In this document: piece after piece, positions 1-11,772 of the stretch
How the letters are laid out: the number at the start of each line of letters is the position of its first letter
How positions within the stretch are numbered: the first letter of the stretch is position 1
IMG/VR virus record: IMGVR_UViG_2671180637_000006
Coordinates: 1 to 11,772 of that record
Length of the DNA stretch: 11,772 bases
Strand: one strand, 5' to 3'
Source: a virus
Taxonomy: Duplodnaviria; Heunggongvirae; Uroviricota; Caudoviricetes
The notes under the pieces: model-generated
What the model saw: the letters and a program-made list of their open reading frames with translations, nothing else
What the model was told of the DNA's origin: nothing
Databases searched by the model: none
Program-made: the position numbers and the translations under genes

Positions 1-67
1 CACCGCCGTCGAACTGCCCGACGTTCAGACCGCGCCCGTGGCTGAAACTGTCAATCTGTGGGAGTAA
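1..67 (+). CDS. X: 3' end of tail protein X-like gene (partial, start outside window)
   Basis: Open frame from the window edge reads ...TAVELPDVQTAPVAETVNLWE, stop TAA at 65-67, immediately upstream of the holin gene as in P2 (X-Y order). Identification is from synteny and memory of the P2 gpX C-terminus. Confidence 0.55.
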   Translation, partial: TAVELPDVQTAPVAETVNLWE

Positions 68-70
68 CGC

Positions 71-352
71 ATGACAGCAGAAGAAAAAAGCGTCCTGTCG
101 CTTTTCATGATTGGGGTGCTGATTGTTGTCGGCAAGGTGCTTGCCGGTGGTGAACCCATCACCCCGCGTCTGTTTATCGGGCGCATGTTGCTCGGTGGTT
201 TTGTCTCGATGGTTGCCGGTGTTGTTCTGGTGCAGTTTCCTGACCTGTCACTGCCTGCGGTGTGCGGCATCGGCTCCATGCTGGGTATCGCCGGTTATCA
301 GGTGATTGAGATTGCCATTCAGCGCCGCTTTAAGGGCAGGGGGAAACCGTAA
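71..352 (+). CDS. Y: Phage holin (P2 gpY-like), 93 aa
   Basis: ATG at 71 with GGAG at 61-64. Small protein with hydrophobic helices (LSLFMIGVLIVVGKVLAG, LGGFVSMVAGVVLVQF) and a charged C-terminus. Sits directly upstream of the endolysin; its stop overlaps the K start (TAATG at 350-354). Confidence 0.85.
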   Translation: MTAEEKSVLSLFMIGVLIVVGKVLAGGEPITPRLFIGRMLLGGFVSMVAGVVLVQFPDLSLPAVCGIGSMLGIAGYQVIEIAIQRRFKGRGKP

Positions 353-849
353 TGCCGGTAATTAACACGCATCAGAATATCGCCGCCTTTCTCGACATGC
401 TGGCCGTGTCCGAAGGGACGGCGAATCATCCGCTGACGAAAAACCGGGGCTATGACGTGATAGTCACCGGACTGGACGGGAAGCCGGAAATTTTCACCGA
501 CTACAGTGACCACCCGTTCGCACATGGCCGACCGGCGAAGGTGTTTAACCGTCGCGGTGAAAAATCCACGGCCTCCGGTCGCTATCAGCAGCTTTACCTG
601 TTCTGGCCGCACTACCGCAAACAGCTTGCCCTGCCGGATTTCAGTCCGTTGTCACAGGACAGACTTGCCATTCAGTTGATCCGTGAACGCAGTGCACTGG
701 ATGACATCCGGGCGGGACGCATTGAGCGCGCCATTTCACGCTGTCGCAATATCTGGGCGTCCCTGCCGGGAGCCGGTTACGGTCAGCGTGAGCATTCACT
801 GGAAAAACTGGTCACCGTCTGGCGTACCGCTGGCGGCGTACCGGCTTAA
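352..849 (+). CDS. K: Endolysin / phage lysozyme (P2 gpK-like), 165 aa
   Basis: ATG at 352 with RBS AGGGGGAAA at 336-346. Sequence MPVINTHQNIAAFLDMLAVSEGT... matches what I recall of P2 K lysozyme; position after the holin. Confidence 0.9.
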   Translation: MPVINTHQNIAAFLDMLAVSEGTANHPLTKNRGYDVIVTGLDGKPEIFTDYSDHPFAHGRPAKVFNRRGEKSTASGRYQQLYLFWPHYRKQLALPDFSPLSQDRLAIQLIRERSALDDIRAGRIERAISRCRNIWASLPGAGYGQREHSLEKLVTVWRTAGGVPA

Positions 850-863
850 ACGGAGTAAACACC

Positions 864-1289
864 ATGAAGAAATTATCCCTTTCACTGATGCTGAACGTGT
901 CGCTGGCGCTGATGCTGGCACTGTCCCTGATTTACCCGCAGAGCGTGGCCGTCAGTTTTGTCGCCACCTGGGCGATTCTGGCGACGGTTATCTGTGTGGT
1001 TGCCGGTGGTGTCGGTGTGTATGCCACTGAGTATGTACTGGAACGCTACGAACGGGAGCTGCCGCCGGAATCGCTGGCCGTGAAGATTGTCACGTCGCTG
1101 TTTTTGCAGCCGGTGCCGTGGCGCAGACGGGCAGTAGCTCTGGTGGTGATGGTGGCGACATTTATCTCGCTGGTCGCTGCCGGGTGGATTTTTACCGCGC
1201 TGATTTATCTCGTGGCATCGGTGTTCTTCTGGCTGATACGTACGGCCTGCCGTCAGCGTTTTGAGGGGCGGGAACCATGTCAAGGCTGA
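864..1289 (+). CDS. lysA: LysA-like lysis-timing membrane protein, 141 aa
   Basis: ATG at 864 with GGAG at 852-855. Multi-pass hydrophobic protein. Same size and position as P2 lysA between K and lysB. Confidence 0.8.
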   Translation: MKKLSLSLMLNVSLALMLALSLIYPQSVAVSFVATWAILATVICVVAGGVGVYATEYVLERYERELPPESLAVKIVTSLFLQPVPWRRRAVALVVMVATFISLVAAGWIFTALIYLVASVFFWLIRTACRQRFEGREPCQG

Positions 1290-1702
1290 TGATTGTGCTG
1301 GTCGTGTTGTTATCGCTGGCGGTGGCGGGTCTGTTTCTGGCGAAGCATAAAAACGCCAGCCTGCGCACCTCACTGGACAGGGCAAACAACGTAGCCAGCG
1401 AGCAGCAGGCGACCATCACCATGCTGAAAAATCAGCTTCATGTTGCGCTCACCAGGGCAGACAAAAACGAGCTGGCGCAGGTGGCACTGCGTCAGGAGCT
1501 GGAGAACGCCGCGAAGCGTGAAGCACAGCGCGAGAAAACCATCACGAGGTTACTCAATGAAAACGAAGATTTCCGCCGCTGGTACGGTGCTGACCTGCCT
1601 GATGCTGTGCGCCGGTTGCACCAGCGCCCGGCCTGCGCAGACGCCAGTGATTGTCCACAACGCCTGCCCGAAAGTGAGTCTTTGCCCGATGCCGGGCAGT
1701 GA
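1277..1702 (+). CDS. lysB: LysB, Rz-like inner-membrane spanin, 141 aa
   Basis: ATG at 1277 with RBS GAGGGGCGGGAA, overlapping the lysA 3' end by 13 nt. N-terminal TM helix (MIVLVVLLSLAVAGLFLA) followed by a charged coiled-coil-like region. Same size as P2 LysB. Confidence 0.8.
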   Translation: MSRLMIVLVVLLSLAVAGLFLAKHKNASLRTSLDRANNVASEQQATITMLKNQLHVALTRADKNELAQVALRQELENAAKREAQREKTITRLLNENEDFRRWYGADLPDAVRRLHQRPACADASDCPQRLPESESLPDAGQ

Positions 1703-1847
1703 CCCGGAGACGAACGGCGATTTAAGTGCCGATATCCGGCAGCTTGAGAACGCGCTGGCACGCTGTGCCAGCCAGGTAAAAATGATTAAACACTGTCAGG
1801 ACGAAAACGATGCTCAAACCCGACAGCCTGCGCAGGGCGCTGACTGA
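1557..1847 (+). CDS. lysC: LysC, Rz1-like outer-membrane lipoprotein spanin, 96 aa, nested in the +1 frame of lysB
   Basis: Internal ATG at 1557 with GAGG at 1546-1549. Signal peptide plus Cys-containing lipobox-like segment (MKTKISAAGTVLTCLMLCAGCTS) and a Pro/Cys-rich mature part. Starts inside lysB and extends past its stop. The track ORF 1440-1847 is the unrestricted upstream extension of this frame. Confidence 0.7.
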   Translation: MKTKISAAGTVLTCLMLCAGCTSARPAQTPVIVHNACPKVSLCPMPGSDPETNGDLSADIRQLENALARCASQVKMIKHCQDENDAQTRQPAQGAD

Positions 1848-2277
1848 TGCCGTCACGGTGCTGAAAACCAGTCCCGAGATGCTGCGGATATTCGTGGATA
1901 GCGGGAGTATTGCCTCCACGCTGGCGACGTCGCTGTCATTCGAAAAGCGTTACACGCTCAATGTGATTGTGACCGACTTTACCGGTGATTTTGACCTGCT
2001 CATCGTGCCGGTGCTGGCGTGGCTGCGGGAAAATCAGCCCGACATCATGACCACCGACGCAGGCCAGAAAAAGGGCTTCACGTTTTATGCAGACATCAAC
2101 AATGACAGCAGCTTTGATATCAGTATCAGCCTGATGCTGACCGAGCGCACGCTGGTCAGTGAGGTTGACGGTGCGCTGCATGTGAAGAATATCCCGGAAC
2201 CCCCGCCGCCGGAGCCGGTCACCCGCCCGATGGAGCTTTATATCAATGGCGAACTGGTGAGCAAGTGGGATGAATGA
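1810..2277 (+). CDS. R: Tail completion protein R (P2 gpR-like), 155 aa
   Basis: ATG at 1810. Sequence MLKPDSLRRALTDAVTVLKTSPEML... and synteny after the lysis cassette. Confidence 0.85.
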   Translation: MLKPDSLRRALTDAVTVLKTSPEMLRIFVDSGSIASTLATSLSFEKRYTLNVIVTDFTGDFDLLIVPVLAWLRENQPDIMTTDAGQKKGFTFYADINNDSSFDISISLMLTERTLVSEVDGALHVKNIPEPPPPEPVTRPMELYINGELVSKWDE

Positions 2278-2722
2278 GTTTAAGCGTTTTGAAGACCGAC
2301 TGGCCGGACTGACTGAATCGCTGTCACCGTCAGGGCGTCGGCGACTGAGTGCCGAACTGGCGAAACGTCTGCGGCAGAGTCAGCAGCGCCGGGTGATGGC
2401 TCAGAAAGCCCCGGACGGCACACCCTACGCGCCACGTCAGCAGCAGAGCGCCAGAAAAAAGACCGGTCGCGTTAAGCGAAAAATGTTTGCGAAACTTATC
2501 ACCAGTCGTTTTTTGCATATCCGCGCCAGCCCTGAACAGGCATCAATGGAATTTTACGGCGGGAAGTCACCGAAAATCGCCAGCGTGCATCAGTTCGGTC
2601 TGTCGGAAGAAACCCGGAAAGACGGTAAGAAAATTGATTATCCGGCGCGTCCTCTGCTCGGCTTTACCGGTGAGGATGTGCAGATGATTGAAGAGATTAT
2701 CCTGGCTCACCTGAATCGTTAG
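2270..2722 (+). CDS. S: Tail completion / virion morphogenesis protein S (P2 gpS-like), 150 aa
   Basis: ATG at 2270 overlapping the R stop (2275-2277). Sequence MNEFKRFEDRLAGLTESLSPSGRRRLSAELAKRLRQ... Same size as P2 gpS. Confidence 0.85.
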   Translation: MNEFKRFEDRLAGLTESLSPSGRRRLSAELAKRLRQSQQRRVMAQKAPDGTPYAPRQQQSARKKTGRVKRKMFAKLITSRFLHIRASPEQASMEFYGGKSPKIASVHQFGLSEETRKDGKKIDYPARPLLGFTGEDVQMIEEIILAHLNR

Positions 2723-2797
2723 CTTTAATCATCTGAGAATATAAGATAGAAATCAATTGATTAGCATAATTCATTTTGAATTTTCATGTTAATAAAT

Positions 2798-2820
2798 AAA
2801 AGGCCAGTTATTGGCCTTTT
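2798..2820. terminator. Bidirectional rho-independent terminator at the convergent S / cargo-gene junction
   Basis: Perfect 9-bp stem AAAAGGCCA (2798-2806) / TGGCCTTTT (2812-2820) with loop GTTAT. The A-run on one side and T-run on the other give a U-tract on either strand. Confidence 0.6.
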
Positions 2821-2824
2821 ATCA

Positions 2825-3898
2825 TTACTTGCCATTTTTTAATGAATTGATTAACGATGCTATTTGCTCTATGCCATCAAATGTAGATGGTATCTTATCA
2901 TCGGATAGCATGATGTTCGAAAATACGACATCTTCAAATTTTGAAAGCGCTTCCGGATTGTTTTTCCTTATCTCTGAGGAATAGTCGCTATAACTCTGAA
3001 TAAACTGACAAAGGCTCTTTCTGAGTTCTATTTGCATAATCTGAGTTCGTAACGATATGTGATTTATCAGTACAACTCTAAAGTAATAAATGAAAATCAA
3101 TGTGACTGATGCAAAAGGTAGTGCTGACATGAAATATGTGGCAGCATTTGTCGTTTCGAGAGTTGGTAATTTATGCACTCCATAGTATATCAGCGGGGAT
3201 GGGATGATTATAGCTAAGATGACAAGGATTATTCTTGATAGTAAAATTTCACGATCTTTCTTTTTGCCAAGTGAATTAAAGCCTTCAAACAATCCAACAA
3301 AATTAAATGCGACCTCATACCCTTTCAATGATTCTTTAATTGACTCTATTTTGGTATGTTGTTCTTTTAAAAAGGACTCGCATTTTTCGAAAAATTGACG
3401 ACCTTCGCTTAAACTATCAATATATTTTTTATATGTGTCCACATTGCCTGAGCTTAAAACTTCTTTAACCATTGCTAATGGTAGTTCTCTAAGAGAAAAG
3501 TCTATCTGTGCTCTGCTTTGTTCATCGAATTCATTATAGTTATACAGCGCGAAATCCTTGATGGTTTTTAGTGGTGAAAAGAAAGTATCTGTCTCAGGAG
3601 AGAGAATACTTGGCTCAATAATAAATCTAAAAAAACAAGTGAATATAAAATTGATGCTGTTGTTATCCTCTCCCTTTTCTTTTAATAAGCTTGTAAAGGT
3701 ATTACCAATCCTGACAATGTTGTACTGGGATTTTTTGTCCCAATCTTCTGGGTTTTCAGAAATGAAGTCTATTGCTTGAGCAATTATTTTGTTTCTGTTT
3801 GATTCAAAGGTTGTGCTGGGTGTCAGCGTGTTCAAAAAGACCAGATAATCTTTGAACAATTCTTTCATTGTTTTTGATGAGAAAAAGTAAGTGTTCAT
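2825..3898 (-). CDS. Hypothetical membrane protein, no recognised domain (about 357 aa from ATG at 3898; 389 aa if started at the GTG at 3994); candidate anti-phage / abortive-infection effector
   Basis: Long minus-strand ORF filling the AT-rich island; stop TAA at 2825-2827. Two adjacent hydrophobic helices near the C-terminus (ILLSRIILVILAIIIPSPLIYYGV and ATYFMSALPFASVTLIFIYYFRVVLI) followed by a roughly 75 aa tail. Start is uncertain: the track start at 3994 is a GTG that overlaps the V start codon, and the in-frame ATGs at 3898 and 3868 both lack a good SD. Confidence 0.6.
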   Translation of the reverse strand: MNTYFFSSKTMKELFKDYLVFLNTLTPSTTFESNRNKIIAQAIDFISENPEDWDKKSQYNIVRIGNTFTSLLKEKGEDNNSINFIFTCFFRFIIEPSILSPETDTFFSPLKTIKDFALYNYNEFDEQSRAQIDFSLRELPLAMVKEVLSSGNVDTYKKYIDSLSEGRQFFEKCESFLKEQHTKIESIKESLKGYEVAFNFVGLFEGFNSLGKKKDREILLSRIILVILAIIIPSPLIYYGVHKLPTLETTNAATYFMSALPFASVTLIFIYYFRVVLINHISLRTQIMQIELRKSLCQFIQSYSDYSSEIRKNNPEALSKFEDVVFSNIMLSDDKIPSTFDGIEQIASLINSLKNGK

Positions 3899-3984
3899 TA
3901 TGGATTTTGTTGTCCCTTGTTGTTCTGTGCACCAGAAATCGTTGCGTGATTTACTTTGGGATTGTACAGAATCATTATTCTCGA
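3899..3984. promoter_or_regulatory. Divergent intergenic region expected to contain the late promoter for the V operon (P2 P_V equivalent)
   Basis: By synteny, P2 has a late promoter upstream of V. The region contains TGTTGTT at 3918-3924 followed by ACCAG, a motif also present upstream of FI. I could not find an exact TGT-N12-ACA dyad. Confidence 0.3.
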
Positions 3985-4614
3985 ATGAATACACAATACA
4001 ATGAAATACTTCGCTTTATACGCAATATGATTCGCACCGGCATTATCGTCGAAACCGACCTTAACGCCGGTCGCTGCCGTGTGCAGACCGGCGGCATGTG
4101 TACCGACTGGCTTCAGTGGCTGACCCATCGCGCCGGACGTTCGCGCACGTGGTGGGCACCTTCCGTGGGGGAACAGGTGCTGATTCTGGCCGTGGGCGGT
4201 GAACTCGACACGGCGTTCGTTCTGCCGGGGATTTATTCCGGCGATAACCCCGCGCCGTCTGCGTCGGCGGATGCCCTGCATATCCGTTTCCCTGACGGGG
4301 CGGTGATTGAGTATGAACCTGAAACCAGTGCACTCACGGTAAGCGGAATTAAAACGGCCAGCGTGACGGCTTCTGATTCTGTTACTGCCACGGTGCCCGT
4401 GGTCACGGTGAAAGCATCAACCCGTGTCACTCTGGACACGCCGGAGGTGGTCTGCACAAACAGGCTGATTACCGGCACGCTGGAAGTGCAGAAGGGCGGG
4501 ACGATGCGCGGCAACATTGAACACACCGGCGGTGAACTCTCATCAAACGGTAAGGTACTGCATACCCATAAACACCCCGGCGACAGCGGCGGCACAACCG
4601 GGAGTCCTCTATGA
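3985..4614 (+). CDS. V: Baseplate spike protein V (P2 gpV-like), 209 aa
   Basis: ATG at 3985 (MNTQYNEILRFIRNMIRTGIIVETDLNAGRCRVQTGG...). C-terminus ...HTHKHPGDSGGTTGSPL is typical of the gpV spike. The track ORF starting at 3868 is an upstream extension. Confidence 0.9.
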   Translation: MNTQYNEILRFIRNMIRTGIIVETDLNAGRCRVQTGGMCTDWLQWLTHRAGRSRTWWAPSVGEQVLILAVGGELDTAFVLPGIYSGDNPAPSASADALHIRFPDGAVIEYEPETSALTVSGIKTASVTASDSVTATVPVVTVKASTRVTLDTPEVVCTNRLITGTLEVQKGGTMRGNIEHTGGELSSNGKVLHTHKHPGDSGGTTGSPL

Positions 4615-4958
4615 CAGCGCGTTATCTCGGAATGAATCGCAGTGATGGCCTGACTGTCACTGACCTTGAGCATATCAGCCAGAGTATCGGCGATATCCTG
4701 CGCACACCGGTCGGCTCACGGGTGATGCGTCGTGATTACGGCTCGTTGCTGGCGTCAATGATTGACCAGCCGCAGACTCCGGCGCTTGAGTTGCAGATTA
4801 AGGTCGCCTGTTACATGGCTGTGCTGAAATGGGAACCCCGCGTCACCCTGTCATCTGTCACCACGGCGCGCAGCTTTGACGGGCGAATGACAGTTACGTT
4901 AACCGGCCAGCACAACGACACCGGCCAGCCACTTTCGTTAACCATCCCTGTGAGTTGA
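4611..4958 (+). CDS. W: Baseplate assembly protein W (P2 gpW-like, gp25-type), 115 aa
   Basis: ATG at 4611 overlapping the V stop (ATGA), GGAG at 4601-4604. Sequence and size match P2 gpW. Confidence 0.9.
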   Translation: MTARYLGMNRSDGLTVTDLEHISQSIGDILRTPVGSRVMRRDYGSLLASMIDQPQTPALELQIKVACYMAVLKWEPRVTLSSVTTARSFDGRMTVTLTGQHNDTGQPLSLTIPVS

Positions 4959-4962
4959 AACC

Positions 4963-5871
4963 ATGCCGATTATCGACCTGAACCAGCTACCCGCACCGGA
5001 TGTGGTCGAGGAGCTGGATTTTGAAACCATTCTTGCTGAACGCAAGGCGACACTGATTTCCCTTTACCCGGAAGACCAGCAGGAGGCGGTCGCCCGTACC
5101 CTGACGCTGGAATCTGAGCCTCTCGTCAAACTGCTGGAGGAAAATGCTTATCGTGAGCTTATCTGGCGTCAGCGTGTGAATGAGGCCGCACGGGCGGTGA
5201 TGCTGGCCTGTGCCGCCGGTAATGACCTTGATGTGATTGGTGCCAATTACAACACCACGCGCCTGATTATCACTCCGGCAGATGATTCGACCCTCCCGCC
5301 GACACCGGCCGTGATGGAATCTGACACCGATTATCGTCTGCGTATTCAGCAGGCCTTTGAAGGTTTAAGCGTCGCCGGGTCGGTGGGTGCCTATCAGTAT
5401 CATGGTCGCAGTGCTGACGGGCGTGTCGCGGATATCTCTGTCACCAGTCCGTCTCCGGCCTGCGTCACCATCTCCGTGCTGTCACGTGAAAATAACGGTG
5501 TCGCATCCGAAGACCTGCTGGCCGTGGTGCGTAACGCCCTTAATGGTGAGGACGTCAGGCCGGTGGCCGACCGCGTGACCGTGCAGTCTGCCGCCATTGT
5601 TGAATATCAGATAAACGCCACGCTTTACCTTTACCCAGGCCCCGAAAGCGAACCCATCCGCGCTGCCGCCGTGAAAAAACTGGAAGCGTATATCACAGCA
5701 CAGCACCGGCTGGGGCGTGACATCCGTCTGTCTGCCATTTATGCCGCTTTGCATGTGGAAGGTGTGCAGCGTGTCGAACTGGCTGCACCACTGGCCGACA
5801 TCGTGCTCAACAGTACGCAGGCGTCTTTCTGTACCGAATACCGCGTCGTGACCGGAGGCTCGGATGAGTGA
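4963..5871 (+). CDS. J: Baseplate protein J (P2 gpJ-like), 302 aa
   Basis: ATG at 4963, 4 nt after the W stop. Sequence MPIIDLNQLPAPDVVEELDFETILAERKA... Same size as P2 gpJ. Confidence 0.9.
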   Translation: MPIIDLNQLPAPDVVEELDFETILAERKATLISLYPEDQQEAVARTLTLESEPLVKLLEENAYRELIWRQRVNEAARAVMLACAAGNDLDVIGANYNTTRLIITPADDSTLPPTPAVMESDTDYRLRIQQAFEGLSVAGSVGAYQYHGRSADGRVADISVTSPSPACVTISVLSRENNGVASEDLLAVVRNALNGEDVRPVADRVTVQSAAIVEYQINATLYLYPGPESEPIRAAAVKKLEAYITAQHRLGRDIRLSAIYAALHVEGVQRVELAAPLADIVLNSTQASFCTEYRVVTGGSDE

Positions 5872-6394
5872 TTCGCGACTGCTGCCGACCGGCTCATCAC
5901 CGCTTGAAGTTGCCGCCGCAAAAGCCTGTGCGGAAATTGAAAAAACGCCGGTCAGGATTCGTGAGCTGTGGAACCCGGACACCTGCCCGGCAAATCTGCT
6001 GCCGTGGCTGGCGTGGGCGTTTTCGGTCGACAGATGGGATGAAAAGTGGCCGGAAGCGACAAAACGCGCCGTTATCCGCGATGCGTATTTCATCCACTGT
6101 CATAAAGGCACTATAGGTGCAATCCGGCGTGTGGTGGAGCCGCTCGGCTATCTCATCAACGTGACGGAGTGGTGGGAAAACAGTGACCCGCCCGGCACCT
6201 TCCGGCTTGATATTGGTGTACTGGAAAGTGGCATCACAGAGGCAATGTATCAGGAAATGGAACGGCTGATTGCTGATGCCAAACCTGCAAGCCGTCACCT
6301 TATTGGCCTGAACATTACCCGGGACATTCCCGGCTACCTGTTCGCCGGTGGTGTGGCTTACGACGGCGATGTAATTACGGTTTACCCCGGATAA
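5864..6394 (+). CDS. I: Baseplate / tail formation protein I (P2 gpI-like), 176 aa
   Basis: ATG at 5864 overlapping the J stop (5869-5871). Sequence MSDSRLLPTGSSPLEVAAAKACAEIEKTPVRIRELW... Same size as P2 gpI. Confidence 0.9.
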   Translation: MSDSRLLPTGSSPLEVAAAKACAEIEKTPVRIRELWNPDTCPANLLPWLAWAFSVDRWDEKWPEATKRAVIRDAYFIHCHKGTIGAIRRVVEPLGYLINVTEWWENSDPPGTFRLDIGVLESGITEAMYQEMERLIADAKPASRHLIGLNITRDIPGYLFAGGVAYDGDVITVYPG

Positions 6395-6404
6395 GTGAGG
6401 AATA

Positions 6405-8723
6405 ATGAGCACAAAATTCAAAACCGTTATCACCACTGCCGGTGCAGCAAAGCTGGCAGCGGCAACCGCACCGGGAGGGCGGAAGGTCAACATTACCACG
6501 ATGGCCGTCGGGGATGGCGGTGGTAAATTGCCTGTCCCGGATGCCGGACAGACCGGGCTTATCCACGAAGTCTGGCGACATGCGCTGAACAAAATCAGTC
6601 AGGACAAACGAAACAGTAATTATATTATCGCAGAGCTGGTTATTCCGCCGGAGGTGGGCGGTTTCTGGATGCGTGAGCTTGGCCTGTACGATGATGCGGG
6701 AACGCTAATTGCCGTGGCAAACATGGCCGAAAGTTATAAACCAGCTCTTGCCGAAGGCTCAGGGCGTTCGCAGACCTGCCGCATGGTCATCATCGTCAGC
6801 AGTGTGGCCTCAGTGGAGCTGACCATTGACACCACAACGGTGATGGCGACGCAGGATTACGTTGATGACAAAATTGCAGAGCACGAACAGTCACGACGTC
6901 ACCCGGACGCTTCGCTGACCGCAAAAGGTTTTACTCAGTTAAGCAGTGCGACCAACAGCACGTCTGAAACACTGGCTGCAACGCCGAAAGCGGTAAAGGC
7001 CGCGTATGACCTTGCTAACGGGAAATATACCGCGCAGGATGCCACCACCGCGCGAAAAGGCCTTGTTCAGCTCAGTAGTGCGACTAACAGCACGTCTGAA
7101 ACGATCGCCGCAACGCCAAAGGCGGTTAAGACAGCGTATGACCTTGCTAACGGGAAATACACTGCACAGGACGCCACTACAGCGCGAAAAGGTCTTGTCC
7201 AGCTCAGTAGCGCCACCAACAGCGATTCTGAAACGCTTGCGGCAACACCAAAGGCGGTTAAGACAGCGTATGACCTTGCTAACGGGAAATACACTGCACA
7301 GGATGCCACCACGGCGCGAAAAGGGCTTGTCCAGCTCAGTAGCGCCACCAACAGTGATTCTGAAACCCTCGCGGCAACGCCAAAAGCAGTGAAGTCTGCC
7401 TATGACAATGCTGAAAAACGTCTTCAGAAAGATCAGAACGGTGCGGATATTCCGGGAAAGGATACCTTCACGAAAAATATCGGTGCCTGTCGTGCTTATA
7501 GCGGCGCTTTGAGCACTGAAGCCGGAAACTGGACAACCGCTCAGTTTATTGACTGGCTAGAGTCTCAGGGAGCCTTTAATCATCCCTACTGGATGTGCAA
7601 AGGCTCCTGGTCATATGCAAATAACAAAATCATTACGGATACCGGATGTGGTGATATCCACCTGGCTGGTTGTGTCGTCGAGGTCATGGGAACTAAATCT
7701 GCAATCACTATCCGAGTGACCACGCCGACAACATCAAGTGGTGGCGGTACAACCAGCGCGCAATTCACTTACATTAATCATGGGGACGGCTACTCCCCCG
7801 GCTGGCGTCGTGACTGGAATCGTCAGGGCGACGCAATGACCGGAACGATTAATCAGGACGGTGGAAGCCAGAATGCCTATATGTCTACGGCCTTATGTTC
7901 AGGCACCAGAGGCGGCAAAAAATATCTCAGAAAGTTTCGTGGTGGAGAAGGAGATACTATCTGGCATGAAACAGTACAGGGCGGGGTAATTCGCTGGGCG
8001 ACAGGAAACTATGACACTCAGGAAGAATTATCACTCAGCTCCGCTTATGGTCTCCGTTCAAGAGGTGAAATTACATCACTCAGTGCTAATGGTCTGCGCA
8101 TTGCTTATGGCAATTATGGATTCTTTATCAGGAATGATGGCGGCAGCACATATTTAATGCTGACGGCCTCTGGCGATAAATTTGGGACATGGAACGGTTT
8201 AAGACCGCTGACTATCAATAACGCTAATGGCGGAGTGTCAATGGGGCATGGCCTGAGTGTTACAGGTGATATTGTCTCAAGTACCAAAGTACGTGCCGGT
8301 AGCGGGAAAAAGTTCACGGTCAGCAGCAGCAATACATCCACGAAGGAAGCCGCATTCAATTTGTGGGGAAACTCAAGTCGTCCTGTGGTGGCTGAATTAG
8401 GTGATGATGCAGGCTGGCATTTTTACAGTCAGAGAAATACAGATAACAGCATCACTTTTGCTGTTAACGGGCAGGTATCACCATCTAACTATAGTAATTT
8501 TGATTCACGCTATGTCCGGGATATCCGGCTTGGTGGTGCTGCCACATACAAACCTGCGAACAATGGCATGACATGGACACATCAGGCACCGTCCGGGTGT
8601 GTATATTCCGGCATTATTGTTCAGGATACCGGCTCAAACTCTGCCGATAACATTGGTGGCATATATTACAGACCGGTGCAGAAATACATTAACGGGACAT
8701 GGTATAACGTAGCGCAGGTATAA
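6405..8723 (+). CDS. H: Tail fiber protein H (P2 gpH-like N-terminus, repeat-expanded shaft, divergent distal domain), 772 aa
   Basis: ATG at 6405 with GTGAGG at 6395-6400. N-terminal roughly 150 aa (MSTKFKTVITTAGAAKLAAATAPGG...) is P2 H-like. Then 44-aa phage-tail-fiber-type repeats, then a Gly/Ser/Thr/Asn-rich distal domain encoded by AT-richer DNA. Confidence 0.9.
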   Translation: MSTKFKTVITTAGAAKLAAATAPGGRKVNITTMAVGDGGGKLPVPDAGQTGLIHEVWRHALNKISQDKRNSNYIIAELVIPPEVGGFWMRELGLYDDAGTLIAVANMAESYKPALAEGSGRSQTCRMVIIVSSVASVELTIDTTTVMATQDYVDDKIAEHEQSRRHPDASLTAKGFTQLSSATNSTSETLAATPKAVKAAYDLANGKYTAQDATTARKGLVQLSSATNSTSETIAATPKAVKTAYDLANGKYTAQDATTARKGLVQLSSATNSDSETLAATPKAVKTAYDLANGKYTAQDATTARKGLVQLSSATNSDSETLAATPKAVKSAYDNAEKRLQKDQNGADIPGKDTFTKNIGACRAYSGALSTEAGNWTTAQFIDWLESQGAFNHPYWMCKGSWSYANNKIITDTGCGDIHLAGCVVEVMGTKSAITIRVTTPTTSSGGGTTSAQFTYINHGDGYSPGWRRDWNRQGDAMTGTINQDGGSQNAYMSTALCSGTRGGKKYLRKFRGGEGDTIWHETVQGGVIRWATGNYDTQEELSLSSAYGLRSRGEITSLSANGLRIAYGNYGFFIRNDGGSTYLMLTASGDKFGTWNGLRPLTINNANGGVSMGHGLSVTGDIVSSTKVRAGSGKKFTVSSSNTSTKEAAFNLWGNSSRPVVAELGDDAGWHFYSQRNTDNSITFAVNGQVSPSNYSNFDSRYVRDIRLGGAATYKPANNGMTWTHQAPSGCVYSGIIVQDTGSNSADNIGGIYYRPVQKYINGTWYNVAQV
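6924..7406 (+). repeat. In-frame tandem repeat array, about 3.7 copies of a 132-bp (44-codon) unit, inside H
   Basis: Unit K-G-[FL]-[TV]-QLSSATNS[TD]SET[LI]AATPKAVK[AT]AYDLANGKYTAQDATTAR starts at 6924, 7056, 7188 and 7320 (partial). Copies differ at a minority of nucleotides, so they are diverged, not identical. Confidence 0.85.
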
Positions 8724-8726
8724 TTT

Positions 8727-9254
8727 ATGCAGCATTTGATAAATATAACGGCGGGTAATCCAAAAACAGTTGAACAATATCAATTGACAAAGGACTTTGA
8801 TGTTGTCTGGTTTTTTACAGAAGATGGTAAGAACTGGTACGAAGAACAAAAGTATTTTGCTGATGACACGATAAAAATAGCGTACGACAAAGATAATATC
8901 ATCCGCTATGTGGAAAAGGATGTGACAGCTATCAGACCGGATGGATTAAGTGTTGTTGAAGTGCCGGATATTACTGCTAACCGACGGGCGGACATTTCAG
9001 GGAACTGGATGTTTAAGGACGGTACAGTGATTAAACGAATTTATACGGCAGAGGAATTGCAGCAGCAGGCAGAAAATCGGAAAGCCAGACTTCTTGCAGA
9101 TGCTGAATCCGTGATTTTGCCGCTGGAGCGCGCTGTCAGGCTGAATATGGCAACAGATGAGGAGCGCAGTCGACTGGAGGCATGGGAACGCTACAGTGTT
9201 CTGGTCAGTCGTGTGGATCCTGCAAATCCTGAATGGCCGGAAATGCCGCAATAA
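8727..9254 (+). CDS. G: Tail fiber assembly chaperone G (Tfa family), 175 aa
   Basis: ATG at 8727, 3 nt after the H stop. AT-rich N-terminal two-thirds and a GC-richer conserved C-terminus (...[29 protein letters not shown]), as expected for a chaperone co-varying with the fiber tip. Confidence 0.85.
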
Positions 9255-9289
9255 GTTGTATGAGCTCTGGTGTGAGCTTACATATCTAT

Positions 9290-9339
9290 GGCACAGAGTA
9301 AAGCCTAATCTGAGAGTCCGCTCTGTGCCAGGAGCGGAC
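9290..9339 (+). other. Two overlapping, mutually exclusive hairpins just downstream of G
   Basis: GGCACAGAG (9290-9298) pairs with CTCTGTGCC (9321-9329); GTCCGCTC (9316-9323) pairs with GAGCGGAC (9332-9339). The stems share nt 9321-9323. No clean U-tract follows. Confidence 0.3.
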
Positions 9340-9467
9340 GTTCGTATGCTTGGCAACTTTGGTTTTCCTGAGTTCAACTTAACCACCTATGTATCATCGT
9401 AGCCTCTATAGAATAATCATTTTAAAACCTTTTAATATTTGGTAATATGTATTCTATAGTGATCATT

Positions 9468-9510
9468 ATTTCCTATCTCCACGACAGTTATGAGATAGGA
9501 AATTTAATAT
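9468..9510 (+). promoter_or_regulatory. Perfect 12-bp inverted repeat (candidate operator) overlapping a possible sigma70 promoter for the TIR-like gene
   Basis: ATTTCCTATCTC (9468-9479), 12-nt spacer, GAGATAGGAAAT (9492-9503). A -10-like TAATAT at 9505-9510 and a weak -35-like ACGACA at 9481-9486 lie about 40 nt upstream of the ATG at 9547. Confidence 0.35.
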
Positions 9511-9546
9511 AGATGTCGTAATGATGACGATAAAAGTTGAGATGTC

Positions 9547-10512
9547 ATGACCAGTATATTTATATCCTATGCCAGAGAAGACTTTTTAATTGCAAAAAAA
9601 CTAACCGAAGAACTAAATCGACATGAGTACAAGGTATTTTTGGATCAACAATCGATTCAGCTTGGGGCTCATTGGCAAGAAGATATACTGAAGCATTTAA
9701 AAAATGCGGATGTATTTATCGCACTTGTTACTGAACATAGCGATAAGTCTTATTATTTTAATGCAGAGGTTACTGGCGCTATATCCTATGTAGCTCATAG
9801 CAATCGGGATAAACTTATTTTGCCAGTGGTGCTGGATAAAGAAGTGCTTAATGATAGCGATCTTGGGGCCTTCCAAGCATTATTCGCACGCTCTGATGAT
9901 ATGACATACCTCGTACATGAAATTGTGAATGCTATCAGCCGCTTCGAAGGTGCCCGACTAGCTCAGGAAGAGATAAAAGAAATTCGAGCACAAGTTCTTA
10001 AAGATGAATCAGCCGATTACATAAGCGAAACAATTGAGGATCTTAAGGCGCGCGAAAAAGCTGGTCGCCAATTATCGTCAAGATGGCATTTTGCTGGATA
10101 TGCGGCATTAATACTTTCTGTCATTTTCGTATTTATTCTTTGGTATTTGGCTGAGCGTTCATTTGTACAATCACCTCTTGATACCACTAGACTGGTTTTC
10201 GATGCCATTAAGGGCGTAACGGTTGTTGCGTTACTTTTGGGCTTGGCAAGATATTCATTTTTAATGGCGAAAACTCATCAATTAGAAGCTTTGAAGAACG
10301 CCGATCGTCTGCACGCCATTTCTTTTGGGAAATTTTATATGCGCGTTTTCTCTACGCAAATATCTCAATCTGAATTAAAAGAAGTATTTCAACATTGGAA
10401 TACTTCAGGGGCGTCAGATTTGTCGCATCTTGATGTAGATAAAATTGACTCGCGATTTATTGAACTCTTTGGGAAAATCGCATCAAGATTTGATGGCAAA
10501 AATAAATCTTAA
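9547..10512 (+). CDS. TIR-like domain protein fused to a C-terminal two-helix membrane hairpin, 321 aa; candidate anti-phage effector
   Basis: ATG at 9547. N-terminus fits the TIR pattern: IFISYAREDF (betaA), KVFLD (betaB), ADVFIALVTEHSDKSYYFNAEV (betaC/alphaC with Glu74 at the position of the conserved TIR glutamate). Residues about 130-180 are charged and helical. Hydrophobic helices FAGYAALILSVIFVFILWYLA and GVTVVALLLGLARYSFLMA, then an 80-aa tail. Confidence 0.6.
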   Translation: MTSIFISYAREDFLIAKKLTEELNRHEYKVFLDQQSIQLGAHWQEDILKHLKNADVFIALVTEHSDKSYYFNAEVTGAISYVAHSNRDKLILPVVLDKEVLNDSDLGAFQALFARSDDMTYLVHEIVNAISRFEGARLAQEEIKEIRAQVLKDESADYISETIEDLKAREKAGRQLSSRWHFAGYAALILSVIFVFILWYLAERSFVQSPLDTTRLVFDAIKGVTVVALLLGLARYSFLMAKTHQLEALKNADRLHAISFGKFYMRVFSTQISQSELKEVFQHWNTSGASDLSHLDVDKIDSRFIELFGKIASRFDGKNKS

Positions 10513-10642
10513 CTAAGGATTCTTCTTGTCAGGGCTGGCAATCAATTTAAGCCCGCTATTCGCTCAAAGCAGACTATCAGATTTGATAGCGTTTGGGCTA
10601 TGTAAATTGTCAGTCGGAAAATGAGCGTGTACAAATCATGAC

Positions 10643-10670
10643 AGGCGGGCTGATTGCCCGCCTTTTCTTT
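10643..10670 (+). terminator. Rho-independent terminator downstream of the TIR-like gene
   Basis: GC stem AGGCGGGC (10643-10650), loop TGATT, GCCCGCC (10656-10662), then TTTTCTTT (10663-10670). Confidence 0.7.
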
Positions 10671-10765
10671 ATCTGTTGTTTCATCCACTGACCAGCCAGG
10701 TCAAATAGCATCTCATGCTCTGCACAACAGAAAATAGTTGCACCCATTAACCACGGAGTTAAACG
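10671..10765 (+). promoter_or_regulatory. Region expected to contain the late promoter for the FI operon (P2 P_F equivalent)
   Basis: By synteny, P2 has a late promoter upstream of FI. Contains TGTTGTT at 10674-10680 followed by ACCAG at 10691-10695, and the inverted pair TCTGTTGT (10672-10679) / ACAACAGA (10724-10731). GGAG at 10755-10758 is the RBS for FI. Confidence 0.3.
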
Positions 10766-11772
10766 GATGAGTGACTATCATCACGGCGTGCAGGTGCTGG
10801 AGATTAACGACGGCACCCGCGTCATTTCCACCGTATCCACTGCCATTGTCGGCATGGTCTGTACGGCCAGCGATGCGGATGCGGAATCCTTCCCCCTCAA
10901 TAAACCGGTGCTGATTACCAATGTGCAGAGTGCAATTGCAAAGGCCGGTAAAAAAGGCACGCTGGCGGCATCGTTGCAGGCCATCGCCGACCAGTCAAAA
11001 CCGGTCACCGTTGTTGTGCGCGTGGAGGACGGCACCGGCGACGACGAAGAAACGAAACTTGCGCAGACCGTTTCCAATATCATCGGCACCACCGACGAAA
11101 ACGGTCAGTACACCGGACTGAAAGCCCTGCTGGCGGCAGAGTCGGTAACCGGTGTTAAACCGCGCATTCTCGGTGTGCCGGGACTGGACACCAAAGAGGT
11201 GGCTGTTGCACTGGCATCCGTCTGTCAGAAGCTGCGCGCTTTCGGATATATCAGCGCATGGGGCTGTAAGACCATTTCCGAGGTGAAAGCCTACCGCCAG
11301 AATTTCAGCCAGCGTGAGCTGATGGTCATCTGGCCGGATTTCCTCGCATGGGATACGGTCACCAGTACCACCGCCACCGCGTATGCCACCGCCCGTGCGC
11401 TGGGGCTGCGCGCTAAAATCGACCAGGAGCAGGGCTGGCATAAAACGCTGTCCAACGTCGGGGTAAACGGTGTTACCGGCATCAGCGCATCTGTATTCTG
11501 GGATTTGCAGGAGTCCGGCACCGATGCTGACCTGCTTAACGAGTCAGGCGTCACTACGCTGATTCGCCGCGACGGTTTCCGATTCTGGGGTAACCGTACC
11601 TGCTCTGATGACCCGCTGTTCCTCTTTGAAAACTACACCCGCACCGCGCAGGTGATGGCCGACACGATGGCTGAGGCGCACATGTGGGCGGTGGACAAGC
11701 CCATCACCGCAACGCTGATTCGCGACATCGTTGACGGCATCAATGCCAAATTCCGTGAGCTGAAAACAAACG
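10766..11772 (+). CDS. FI: Tail sheath protein FI (P2 gpFI-like), 5' partial (runs off the window end)
   Basis: ATG at 10766 with GGAG at 10755-10758. Open frame to the window end reads MSDYHHGVQVLEINDGTRVISTVSTAIVGMVCTASDADAESFPLNKPVLITN..., which I recognise as the P2 tail sheath N-terminus. Confidence 0.9.

Follow-up and report, generated by a model that had tools for sequence, protein, structure and literature searches.

We analyzed an 11,772-nucleotide stretch of viral DNA (IMG/VR record IMGVR_UViG_2671180637_000006, positions 1 to 11,772; hereafter the window), which represents the late region of a P2-like (Peduovirus) prophage of Escherichia coli, and centered the analysis on a minus-strand gene lying between the tail completion gene S and the baseplate spike gene V. 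This gene, which encodes a 357-residue protein with two transmembrane helices (the 2TM protein), is a real, selected coding gene, and it is a horizontally acquired, self-contained accessory ("moron") gene of the prophage that occupies the S-V slot, where P2 carries orf30. With respect to function, the reading that we favor, at a probability of roughly 45%, is that the 2TM protein may act at the membrane as an abortive-infection-type effector against superinfecting phages. The gene, the cassette that carries it and the two conserved flanks are located as follows (bp, base pairs; G+C, guanine plus cytosine fraction).

2825-3898, minus strand: coding sequence of the 357-residue 2TM protein, a member of phrog_9373 (stop codon at 2825-2827).
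2728-4020, not assigned to a strand: AT-rich cargo cassette of 1,293 bp, G+C 0.331, replacing the P2 orf30 region (defined by blastn against P2 and by base composition).
2270-2722, plus strand: gene S (tail completion), the left conserved flank, 100% identical to the RefSeq S of strain 730V1.
3985-4614, plus strand: gene V (baseplate spike), the right conserved flank, whose first ~17 residues are of the Citrobacter/Yersinia type and not of the P2 type.

The AT-rich island contains one long open reading frame (ORF), on the minus strand, which spans 2825-3994 if translation begins at a GTG (389 amino acids, aa) or 2825-3898 if it begins at an ATG (357 aa), the same two options given by an earlier sequence-only reading of this DNA, which had described a single minus-strand ORF of about 357-389 aa. 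Start-codon annotations conflict: the protein is 357 aa long in most RefSeq entries but 347 aa in strain 7/2 (L087, 1546-2589), and certain GenBank entries give 388-389 aa. We prefer the 357-aa form because RefSeq annotates it at a 99.9%-identical E. coli locus (strain 730V1), because nearly all homologues are 353-358 aa long with the same starting Met, and because F6 is invariant; conservation of residues 1-11 across the family likewise favors this start. An open frame of 357 codons would arise by chance with p ~1e-12, given that ~7.5% of random codons are stops at 33% G+C. Moreover, comparison with a 93%-identical E. coli allele gives a ratio of nonsynonymous to synonymous substitution rates (dN/dS) of 0.13, and the ORF is thus a real coding gene under selection.

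The boundaries of the cassette are sharp. Nucleotide homology to P2 stops at position 2727, 5 bp past the S stop codon, and resumes at 4021, inside V; the cassette takes in the first 12 codons of V together with the S-V intergenic control region, and the same 1,293-bp spacing from flank to flank recurs in other E. coli genomes. It forms one of two AT-rich islands (2728-4020, G+C 0.331, and ~9255-10780, G+C 0.393) within DNA of ~57% G+C, the first corresponding to the orf30 slot of P2 and the second to the P2 Z/fun slot (PMC3091744). P2-like phages are known to carry horizontally acquired genes in the S-V slot (PMC3091744, PMC6823313). These measurements agree with the earlier description of a ~1.26-kb island of ~30% G+C, although the ~65% G+C then ascribed to its surroundings was too high, since the flanks measure 0.57 and 0.53-0.58. 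Every late gene around the 2TM ORF lies on the plus strand (R and S, then V, W, J, I, H, and G), which bears out the placement of this ORF within a same-strand late operon.

The protein matches phrog_9373 over nearly its full length (expect value (E) 2.1e-126, 423 bits; protein residues 20-356 against positions 32-387 of the 388-position profile). It has 352 matching clusters in a 90%-identity collection, and an exhaustive profile search of 1.84 billion representatives recovered 928 clusters at 50% identity (E ≤0.001), 668 of them at ≤1e-30; the best 150 of the 928 are all ~355 aa long and carry zero added domains. Two statements of the sequence-only reading therefore have to be withdrawn: the gene is not an "orphan" without similarity to any family, given the phrog_9373 match (E 2e-126) and the 352 and 928 clusters, and "novel" overstates the case for a family that is large, widespread and already clustered as a PHROG. 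This family extends far beyond phages, into Proteobacteria, Nitrospirales, Bacteroidota and others, and every source labels its proteins hypothetical.

The absence of a recognizable domain was, by comparison, noted correctly, as Pfam, NCBIfam and PADLOC scans of the protein gave no family match and returned only chance-level similarities (DUF3810, E 0.024, and TrbE, E 0.027, both over the transmembrane region). When 50 aligned members were scanned singly against Pfam at E ≤1, no consistent weak family emerged, the scattered matches each involving four members or fewer; models of SLATT and other Pfam two-transmembrane effectors matched 0 of the 50 at the same threshold. A profile search of all Protein Data Bank (PDB) sequences produced nothing below E 0.5, and Foldseek found no match at E ≤0.001 among viral structures. 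Three specific sequence relationships were examined and rejected. P2 Orf30 (AAD03281, 261 aa) is not a homologue (best BLASTP E 1.6, hhalign probability 0.2%), so that the S-V (orf30) assignment made earlier holds for the slot, which is shared with P2 orf30, and not for the protein. putAbiC (PF16872) gave no Pfam match, and hhalign against a putAbiC protein encoded at one of the family loci (L003) gave a probability of 0.1%. Finally, a profile of the N-terminal domain compared with the N-terminus of human MLKL gave an hhalign probability of 0.2%.

The distribution of the family is patchy within E. coli and broad outside it. The gene is carried by 60 of 5,426 complete E. coli genomes, always beside the baseplate gene V. 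The comparison of the S-V locus among P2-like phages that had been proposed as a check shows antisense family alleles at the same slot across Enterobacterales genera: P2-like prophages of Citrobacter, Pantoea, Enterobacter cloacae, Erwinia, Pectobacterium and Rouxiella carry them, always antisense, with alleles that are 35-50% identical. Two very different alleles occupy the slot in Citrobacter P2-like prophages, and the isolated Yersinia phages vB_YenM_31.17 and 06.16-2 also carry a family member there. About 223 Klebsiella plasmids of ~110 kb (e.g., pKPHS1), as well as Klebsiella phage records of that size, encode a distant member (28% identity, hhalign probability 99.6%), whose gene is antisense and surrounded by replication genes. 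These plasmids, which are non-mobilizable, look like phage-plasmids, as they are also recorded as "Klebsiella phage". In pKPHS1 of K. pneumoniae HS11286, the member is the 400-aa KPHS_p100440 (locus L090, 4623-5825, plus strand), antisense between ligase-side and helicase-side genes.

Beyond the Enterobacterales, ~70 loci in Gamma-, Beta-, Delta- and Epsilonproteobacteria, Nitrospirales and Bacteroidota carry the family, none with P2 genes nearby. All-against-all clustering of 888 neighboring ORFs revealed no conserved partner gene; the recurrent neighbor clusters are generic paralogues (ABC transporters, histidine kinases, LysR, GGDEF-EAL and SPFH proteins). In the related Beggiatoa-like sulfur bacteria Halobeggiatoa, Marithrix and Thioploca (L014, L030 and L053), the family member has an ABC transporter upstream of it, while downstream come a hybrid histidine kinase/response regulator and an SPFH/Band-7 protein. 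Outside phages, this is the one arrangement that recurred, probably because the three genomes share a common ancestor. In one integrative element, a family member lies one gene away from a putAbiC gene. At loci from many phyla, the gene is AT-rich relative to its surroundings in 58 of 58 scorable cases (median difference -15 points), with a gene G+C of 0.21-0.48 whatever the host, and the family thus behaves as a single-gene, horizontally moving unit.

Defective prophages offer a view of what is retained when the rest of the phage is lost. In Enterobacter ludwigii and E. roggenkampii, the gene is always found at the same chromosomal location, with a DsbD/sigma-70 cluster on one side and, on the other, genes for a methyl-accepting chemotaxis protein (MCP), LacI and a sucrose phosphotransferase system (PTS). 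Next to it are a disrupted V, either split into pieces covering residues 1-29 and 39-189 or shortened to a 194-aa ORF, a fragment of S (residues 102-145) and other P2 scraps, and no other phage-derived ORF is intact in any of these remnants (L096 and L097 in E. ludwigii, L100 and L101 in E. roggenkampii). The remnants are in varied states of decay, one retaining Ogr/Delta and tail-X scraps and another having a DEAD/ResIII helicase gene inserted downstream. Two remnant copies differ with a synonymous divergence (dS) of 0.20 and a dN/dS of 0.10, and the E. cloacae allele, from an intact prophage, gives a dN/dS of 0.07-0.08 against the remnant copies. Purifying selection on the gene while the surrounding phage decays is most simply explained by a benefit to the bacterium, and retention in a dead remnant argues against a purely phage-life-cycle role. 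A further defective prophage that still carries the cargo is found in E. coli NCTC9041 (L088, 1-1434), where a 98%-identical copy lies in a rearranged prophage; a shortened S there immediately follows a Cox-family gene, so that the genes for capsid and lysis appear to have been deleted.

The benefit need not concern phages. The protein could instead be a lysogenic-conversion or host-fitness membrane protein, acting for example in stress tolerance, ion homeostasis or envelope signaling. Purifying selection within a dead prophage would be expected of such a protein, as would the wide occurrence of family members as single genes amid ordinary chromosomal genes and the lack of a match in the defense databases. 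We nevertheless consider this explanation unlikely, in view of the uniform AT-rich, recently acquired signature (58/58 loci), the patchy distribution (60/5,426 E. coli genomes), the position in phage accessory slots near defense-type cargo, and the lack of any transporter-like or enzyme-like signature.

The cargo of the accessory slots lends circumstantial support to the function that we favor. Two other accessory slots of P2 are experimentally validated defense hotspots (PMC9122126, PMC9519451), and the 2TM gene itself sits in a mobile-element accessory slot carrying defense-type genes, with a PDC-S59 match in the same slot and a protein with a TIR domain in the Z/fun slot of the window. The former is found in E. 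coli GB089 (L093, 1594-2838, minus strand), whose S-V cargo is an antisense gene for a 414-aa AAA ATPase that PADLOC scores as a candidate PDC-S59 (E 1.5e-31). The latter is a 321-aa ORF at 9547-10512 on the plus strand, between G and FI, with an N-terminal TIR domain (Pfam TIR_2, E 6e-21) and PADLOC matches to PDC-S66, ThsB-like and SAVED-TIR models (E 4e-11 to 4e-9); the C-terminal 200 residues gave no match. This ORF is likely a defense gene in a validated P2 hotspot. In strain 730V1, the Z/fun cargo (L001, 15598-18425) differs from that of the window and consists of a 604-aa PDC-S71 protein (PADLOC, E 1e-218) and an HNH fragment. As the S-V cargo of 730V1 is 99.9% identical to that of the window, the two slots have been shuffled independently between near-identical prophages. 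On the plus strand, the window as a whole runs from the lysis genes through R, S, V, W, J, I, H and G to the start of FI, and its remaining delimited late genes are as follows.

1810-2277, plus strand: gene R.
6405-8723, plus strand: gene H.
8727-9254, plus strand: gene G.

The architecture of the protein provides the second line of argument. We modeled the full-length protein with AlphaFold2 (AF2) from a 50-sequence alignment and measured identity per alignment column, which together divide the coding sequence into the following segments (TM1 and TM2, transmembrane helices 1 and 2).

3443-3898, minus strand: residues 1-152, a compact cytoplasmic seven-helix domain (the N-domain), column identity 0.43, with F6, W53 and E95 invariant.
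3308-3442, minus strand: residues 153-197, a single long helix from the N-domain to the membrane part, variable (0.40), defined by the AF2 helix and by conservation.
3260-3307, minus strand: residues 198-213, the motif AFNFVGLxxGFxxLG before TM1, identity 0.70, with N199, F200, L203 and G206 invariant.
3179-3247, minus strand: residues 218-240, TM1 (Kyte-Doolittle window up to 2.48), with KKKDR at its N-terminal side.
3065-3136, minus strand: residues 255-278, TM2, identity 0.65, with P261, Y271, F273 and L277 invariant and R274 near-invariant.
2828-3064, minus strand: residues 279-357, the most conserved part, column identity 0.74-0.78.

This layout agrees with the soluble N-terminal part, two-helix membrane hairpin and 75-aa tail described from the sequence only, the helices lying at residues ~218-240 and ~255-278 and the tail after TM2 measuring 79 aa. 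Lys and Arg residues precede TM1 and follow TM2, and by the positive-inside rule both termini would therefore be cytoplasmic; the protein should be an inner-membrane protein with both ends in the cytoplasm. The segment preceding TM1 (residues 198-213) is probably a membrane-interface helix. Beyond TM2, residues 279-357 comprise, in order, a cytoplasmic helix (QxxQIELRKSLCxFIQxY), KFEDVIFSNIM and a KIPSTFDG motif, with column identities of 0.74 for the post-membrane helix and 0.78 for the KIPSTFDG motif. The periplasmic loop shows the lowest conservation in the protein (0.22).

The full-length AF2 model is all-helical, with a predicted local distance difference test score (pLDDT) of 77.8, and contains the compact N-domain, the long helix 153-197 and the transmembrane hairpin, TM2 running on into the cytoplasm; confidence is low over residues 330-344. 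Modeled alone, the N-domain (1-152) reaches a pLDDT of 92.5 and a predicted template modeling score (pTM) of 0.88. Conservation runs opposite to model confidence, in that the confidently predicted N-domain is variable and the membrane and C-terminal part is conserved. A variable N-domain and linker (0.40-0.43) joined to a conserved TM2 and C-terminal region (0.65-0.78) fits the pattern expected of a variable sensor coupled to a conserved effector. The fold of the modeled N-domain may also resemble the CC, MLKL and HeLo cell-death bundles, a resemblance that we treat as a lead only.

Transmembrane effectors of the SLATT two-transmembrane type, and those of CBASS, Pycsar and retron systems, likewise combine a soluble cytoplasmic domain, a two-helix membrane hairpin and a conserved cytoplasmic helix, and the membrane part is presumed to be the effector in these modules. 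They depend on a signal-making partner, whereas the 2TM gene has no conserved partner. Other stand-alone membrane proteins on mobile elements include lactococcal AbiC/putAbiC (PF16872) and the transmembrane nucleoside triphosphatase (NTPase) Tmn (PMC13001434); the 2TM protein differs from these in having no sequence relation to putAbiC and no NTPase or other enzymatic domain.

We infer an anti-phage role because a TIR protein occupies the other slot of the window, because a PDC-S59 candidate occupies the S-V slot itself, because two P2 hotspots have been validated, and because the protein pairs a variable domain with a conserved module. Under this proposal, a dedicated promoter would drive the cargo gene in the lysogen, in the direction opposite to the late operon, and the protein would reside inactive in the membrane. 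The variable cytoplasmic domain would respond to a cue from an infecting phage, and the conserved hairpin and C-terminal region, probably oligomeric, would then compromise the membrane or, as an alternative last step, block a membrane-dependent step of infection. The superinfecting phage would fail as a result, through abortive infection or through exclusion. In a broader and decidedly more speculative form of the proposal, which we regard as improbable, the family would constitute a widespread class of single-protein membrane immune effectors in which a helical-bundle sensor, possibly CC/MLKL/HeLo-like, drives the 2TM and C-terminal module to permeabilize the inner membrane, and S-V would be a third P2 defense hotspot. 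A selfish membrane toxin or addiction-type element, kept since its loss or de-repression is harmful and conferring no benefit against phages, is the least probable of the explanations considered here.

The same architecture and distribution can be read as non-lethal superinfection exclusion, in which a membrane protein blocks DNA entry or a receptor or inner-membrane step, chiefly of P2-like relatives, as T4 Imm, P22 SieA and HK97 gp15 do. An inner-membrane protein with both termini in the cytoplasm would suit this role, and within the Enterobacterales the gene is carried almost exclusively by P2-like phages; its long residence in one slot with strongly diverged alleles is what co-evolution with competing relatives would be expected to produce, and it is retained in a prophage remnant. 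However, known proteins of that type are far smaller, distant phyla also encode family members in many chromosomal settings unrelated to phages, and a large, well-folded cytoplasmic domain suggests sensing or signaling over passive blocking. Since Pfam, PADLOC and PHROG searches moreover show no homology to such proteins, we judge this form of exclusion to be quite unlikely.

Several observations weigh against the proposed anti-phage role, and the first of them concern the slot. P2-like S..V regions are present in 1,644 of the 5,426 complete E. coli genomes (roughly 30%), and we surveyed them with a joined query comprising 1.5 kb from each flank, taking a 60-row sample spread over the ranking. 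About two-thirds of the sampled slots are empty (103 bp between flanks) and ~30% are of the orf30 type (977 bp); the 2TM cargo (1,293 bp) and a few other cargos make up the rest of the sample. Together with the ATPase gene of GB089, this sample indicates that there are few alternative single-gene antisense cargos in the S-V slot, which is far less diverse than the gpA-gpQ hotspot with its 1,650 gene arrangements (PMC9122126). P2 Orf30, the reference cargo of the slot, has no known function. That alleles 35-50% identical occupy a single position in several genera could instead mean that the protein plays a part in P2 biology.

The neighborhoods and databases also count against it. The genes next to family members outside the Enterobacterales are mostly housekeeping or regulatory (two-component systems, ABC transporters, tRNA synthetases), with scattered integrases and defense-like proteins. 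Among 125 immediate neighbors at the ~70 non-P2 loci, there were few defense-type matches (mad3 and mad8, four each; PDC-S20, PDC-S35, HEC-06, a KAP NTPase and a type I S subunit), a tally that has no background rate for comparison, and we could not show enrichment of the family in defense islands. No experiment or database ties the family to defense: PADLOC-DB v2.0.0 (2023; 5,027 models) contains 0 families that match at E ≤1, the family accessions are absent from the DefensePredictor supplements, and literature searches for the PHROG identifier and six accession numbers returned nothing. Nor did the literature on P2 accessory slots yield an experimental study of the S-V slot. At the level of expression, a promoter scan found no good sigma-70 site upstream of the cargo gene, whose Shine-Dalgarno sequence is weak.

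The two ends of the gene are marked by probable regulatory elements shared with the late operon.

2796-2822, either strand: hairpin with an 11-bp stem and a 5-nucleotide (nt) loop, flanked by A/T runs on both strands (RNAfold).
3899-3984, between divergent genes: control region of 86 bp separating the cargo-gene and V start codons (allele alignments).

The hairpin begins 3 nt beyond the stop codon of the cargo gene and folds on both strands (-14.3 kcal/mol on the plus strand and -16.2 kcal/mol on the minus strand by RNAfold). P2 has an annotated O-operon terminator at the equivalent place, and the hairpin is a probable bidirectional terminator serving the late O operon, after S, and the cargo gene. 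A consensus terminator scanner did not call it, and an Rfam search of the window returned zero RNA families. The convergence of the ORF on S at a bidirectional terminator, as the sequence-only reading had it, is consistent with this fold, the silence of the scanner notwithstanding; the divergence from V is confirmed by start codons 86 bp apart on opposite strands.

The 86-bp region must accommodate both the late promoter pV and some or all of the cargo promoter or 5′ untranslated region, although how its elements are assigned is provisional. A TGTTGT box at ~3908-3925, near the cargo start codon, is conserved across alleles and looks like the beginning of the pV activator site annotated in P2, and the 5′ end of the cargo and the late promoter thus appear to overlap and may interfere with each other. 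In the P2 annotation, the activator-binding site lies 42-69 bp upstream of V; an exact TGT-N10-14-ACA late-promoter dyad was not found upstream of V in the window. A candidate -10 element for the cargo gene, TACAAT, can be read at 3966-3961 on the minus strand.

This control region is peculiar to the cassette. In cargo-bearing E. coli alleles, the N-terminus of V (~17 residues, MNTQYNEILRFIRNMIR) resembles that of V in Citrobacter and Yersinia phages, unlike the V of P2 and of empty alleles. In the empty allele of E. coli S7 (L092, 1497-1562), the S-V spacer is a GC-rich 66 bp with a hairpin, GCCGCCGG...CCGGCGGC, and the upstream control region of V is thus wholly different in empty, orf30-type and cargo-bearing phages. 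The V N-terminus of GB089 (MNINHSLQELARAL...) is also unlike that of P2, indicating that each cargo brings its own V 5′ end.

A cargo whose 5′ end abuts the late pV control region might be an accessory to the P2-like life cycle itself, acting in lysis timing, in tail or baseplate assembly at the membrane, or in lysogeny, and its conserved position across genera, between the lysis and tail-completion genes and the baseplate genes, would accord with such a role. We find this very unlikely, because about two-thirds of E. coli P2-like prophages have no cargo in the slot and P2 orf30 is annotated as non-essential, because the gene is antisense to the late operon and remains intact while V and S decay around it, and because many genomes with family members have no phage genes nearby.

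As an accessory cargo in a known P2 slot, the 2TM gene is of a familiar kind. Like the cargo of the P2-like variable regions (old/tin at gpA-gpQ, Z/fun after G, and orf30 at S-V), it is AT-rich, and with P2 orf30 it shares the slot, the antisense single-gene layout, the flanking terminator and the pV promoter region. P2 old, tin and fun are proven exclusion genes, which sets them apart from the 2TM gene, a candidate only. The family itself is unnamed, large, and unlike the characterized defense proteins with which we compared it. Uncharacterized cargo is common in P2 slots, and a specialist would find nothing surprising here before a phenotype is shown. Nevertheless, two P2-like accessory slots have already yielded many new anti-phage systems. 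If the 2TM protein serves in defense, it would be a compact membrane effector that carries its sensor within a single gene, and the S-V slot would become a third site in which to look for such systems; otherwise, it would still represent a large, conserved family of membrane proteins spread by temperate phages, the function of which is worth knowing.

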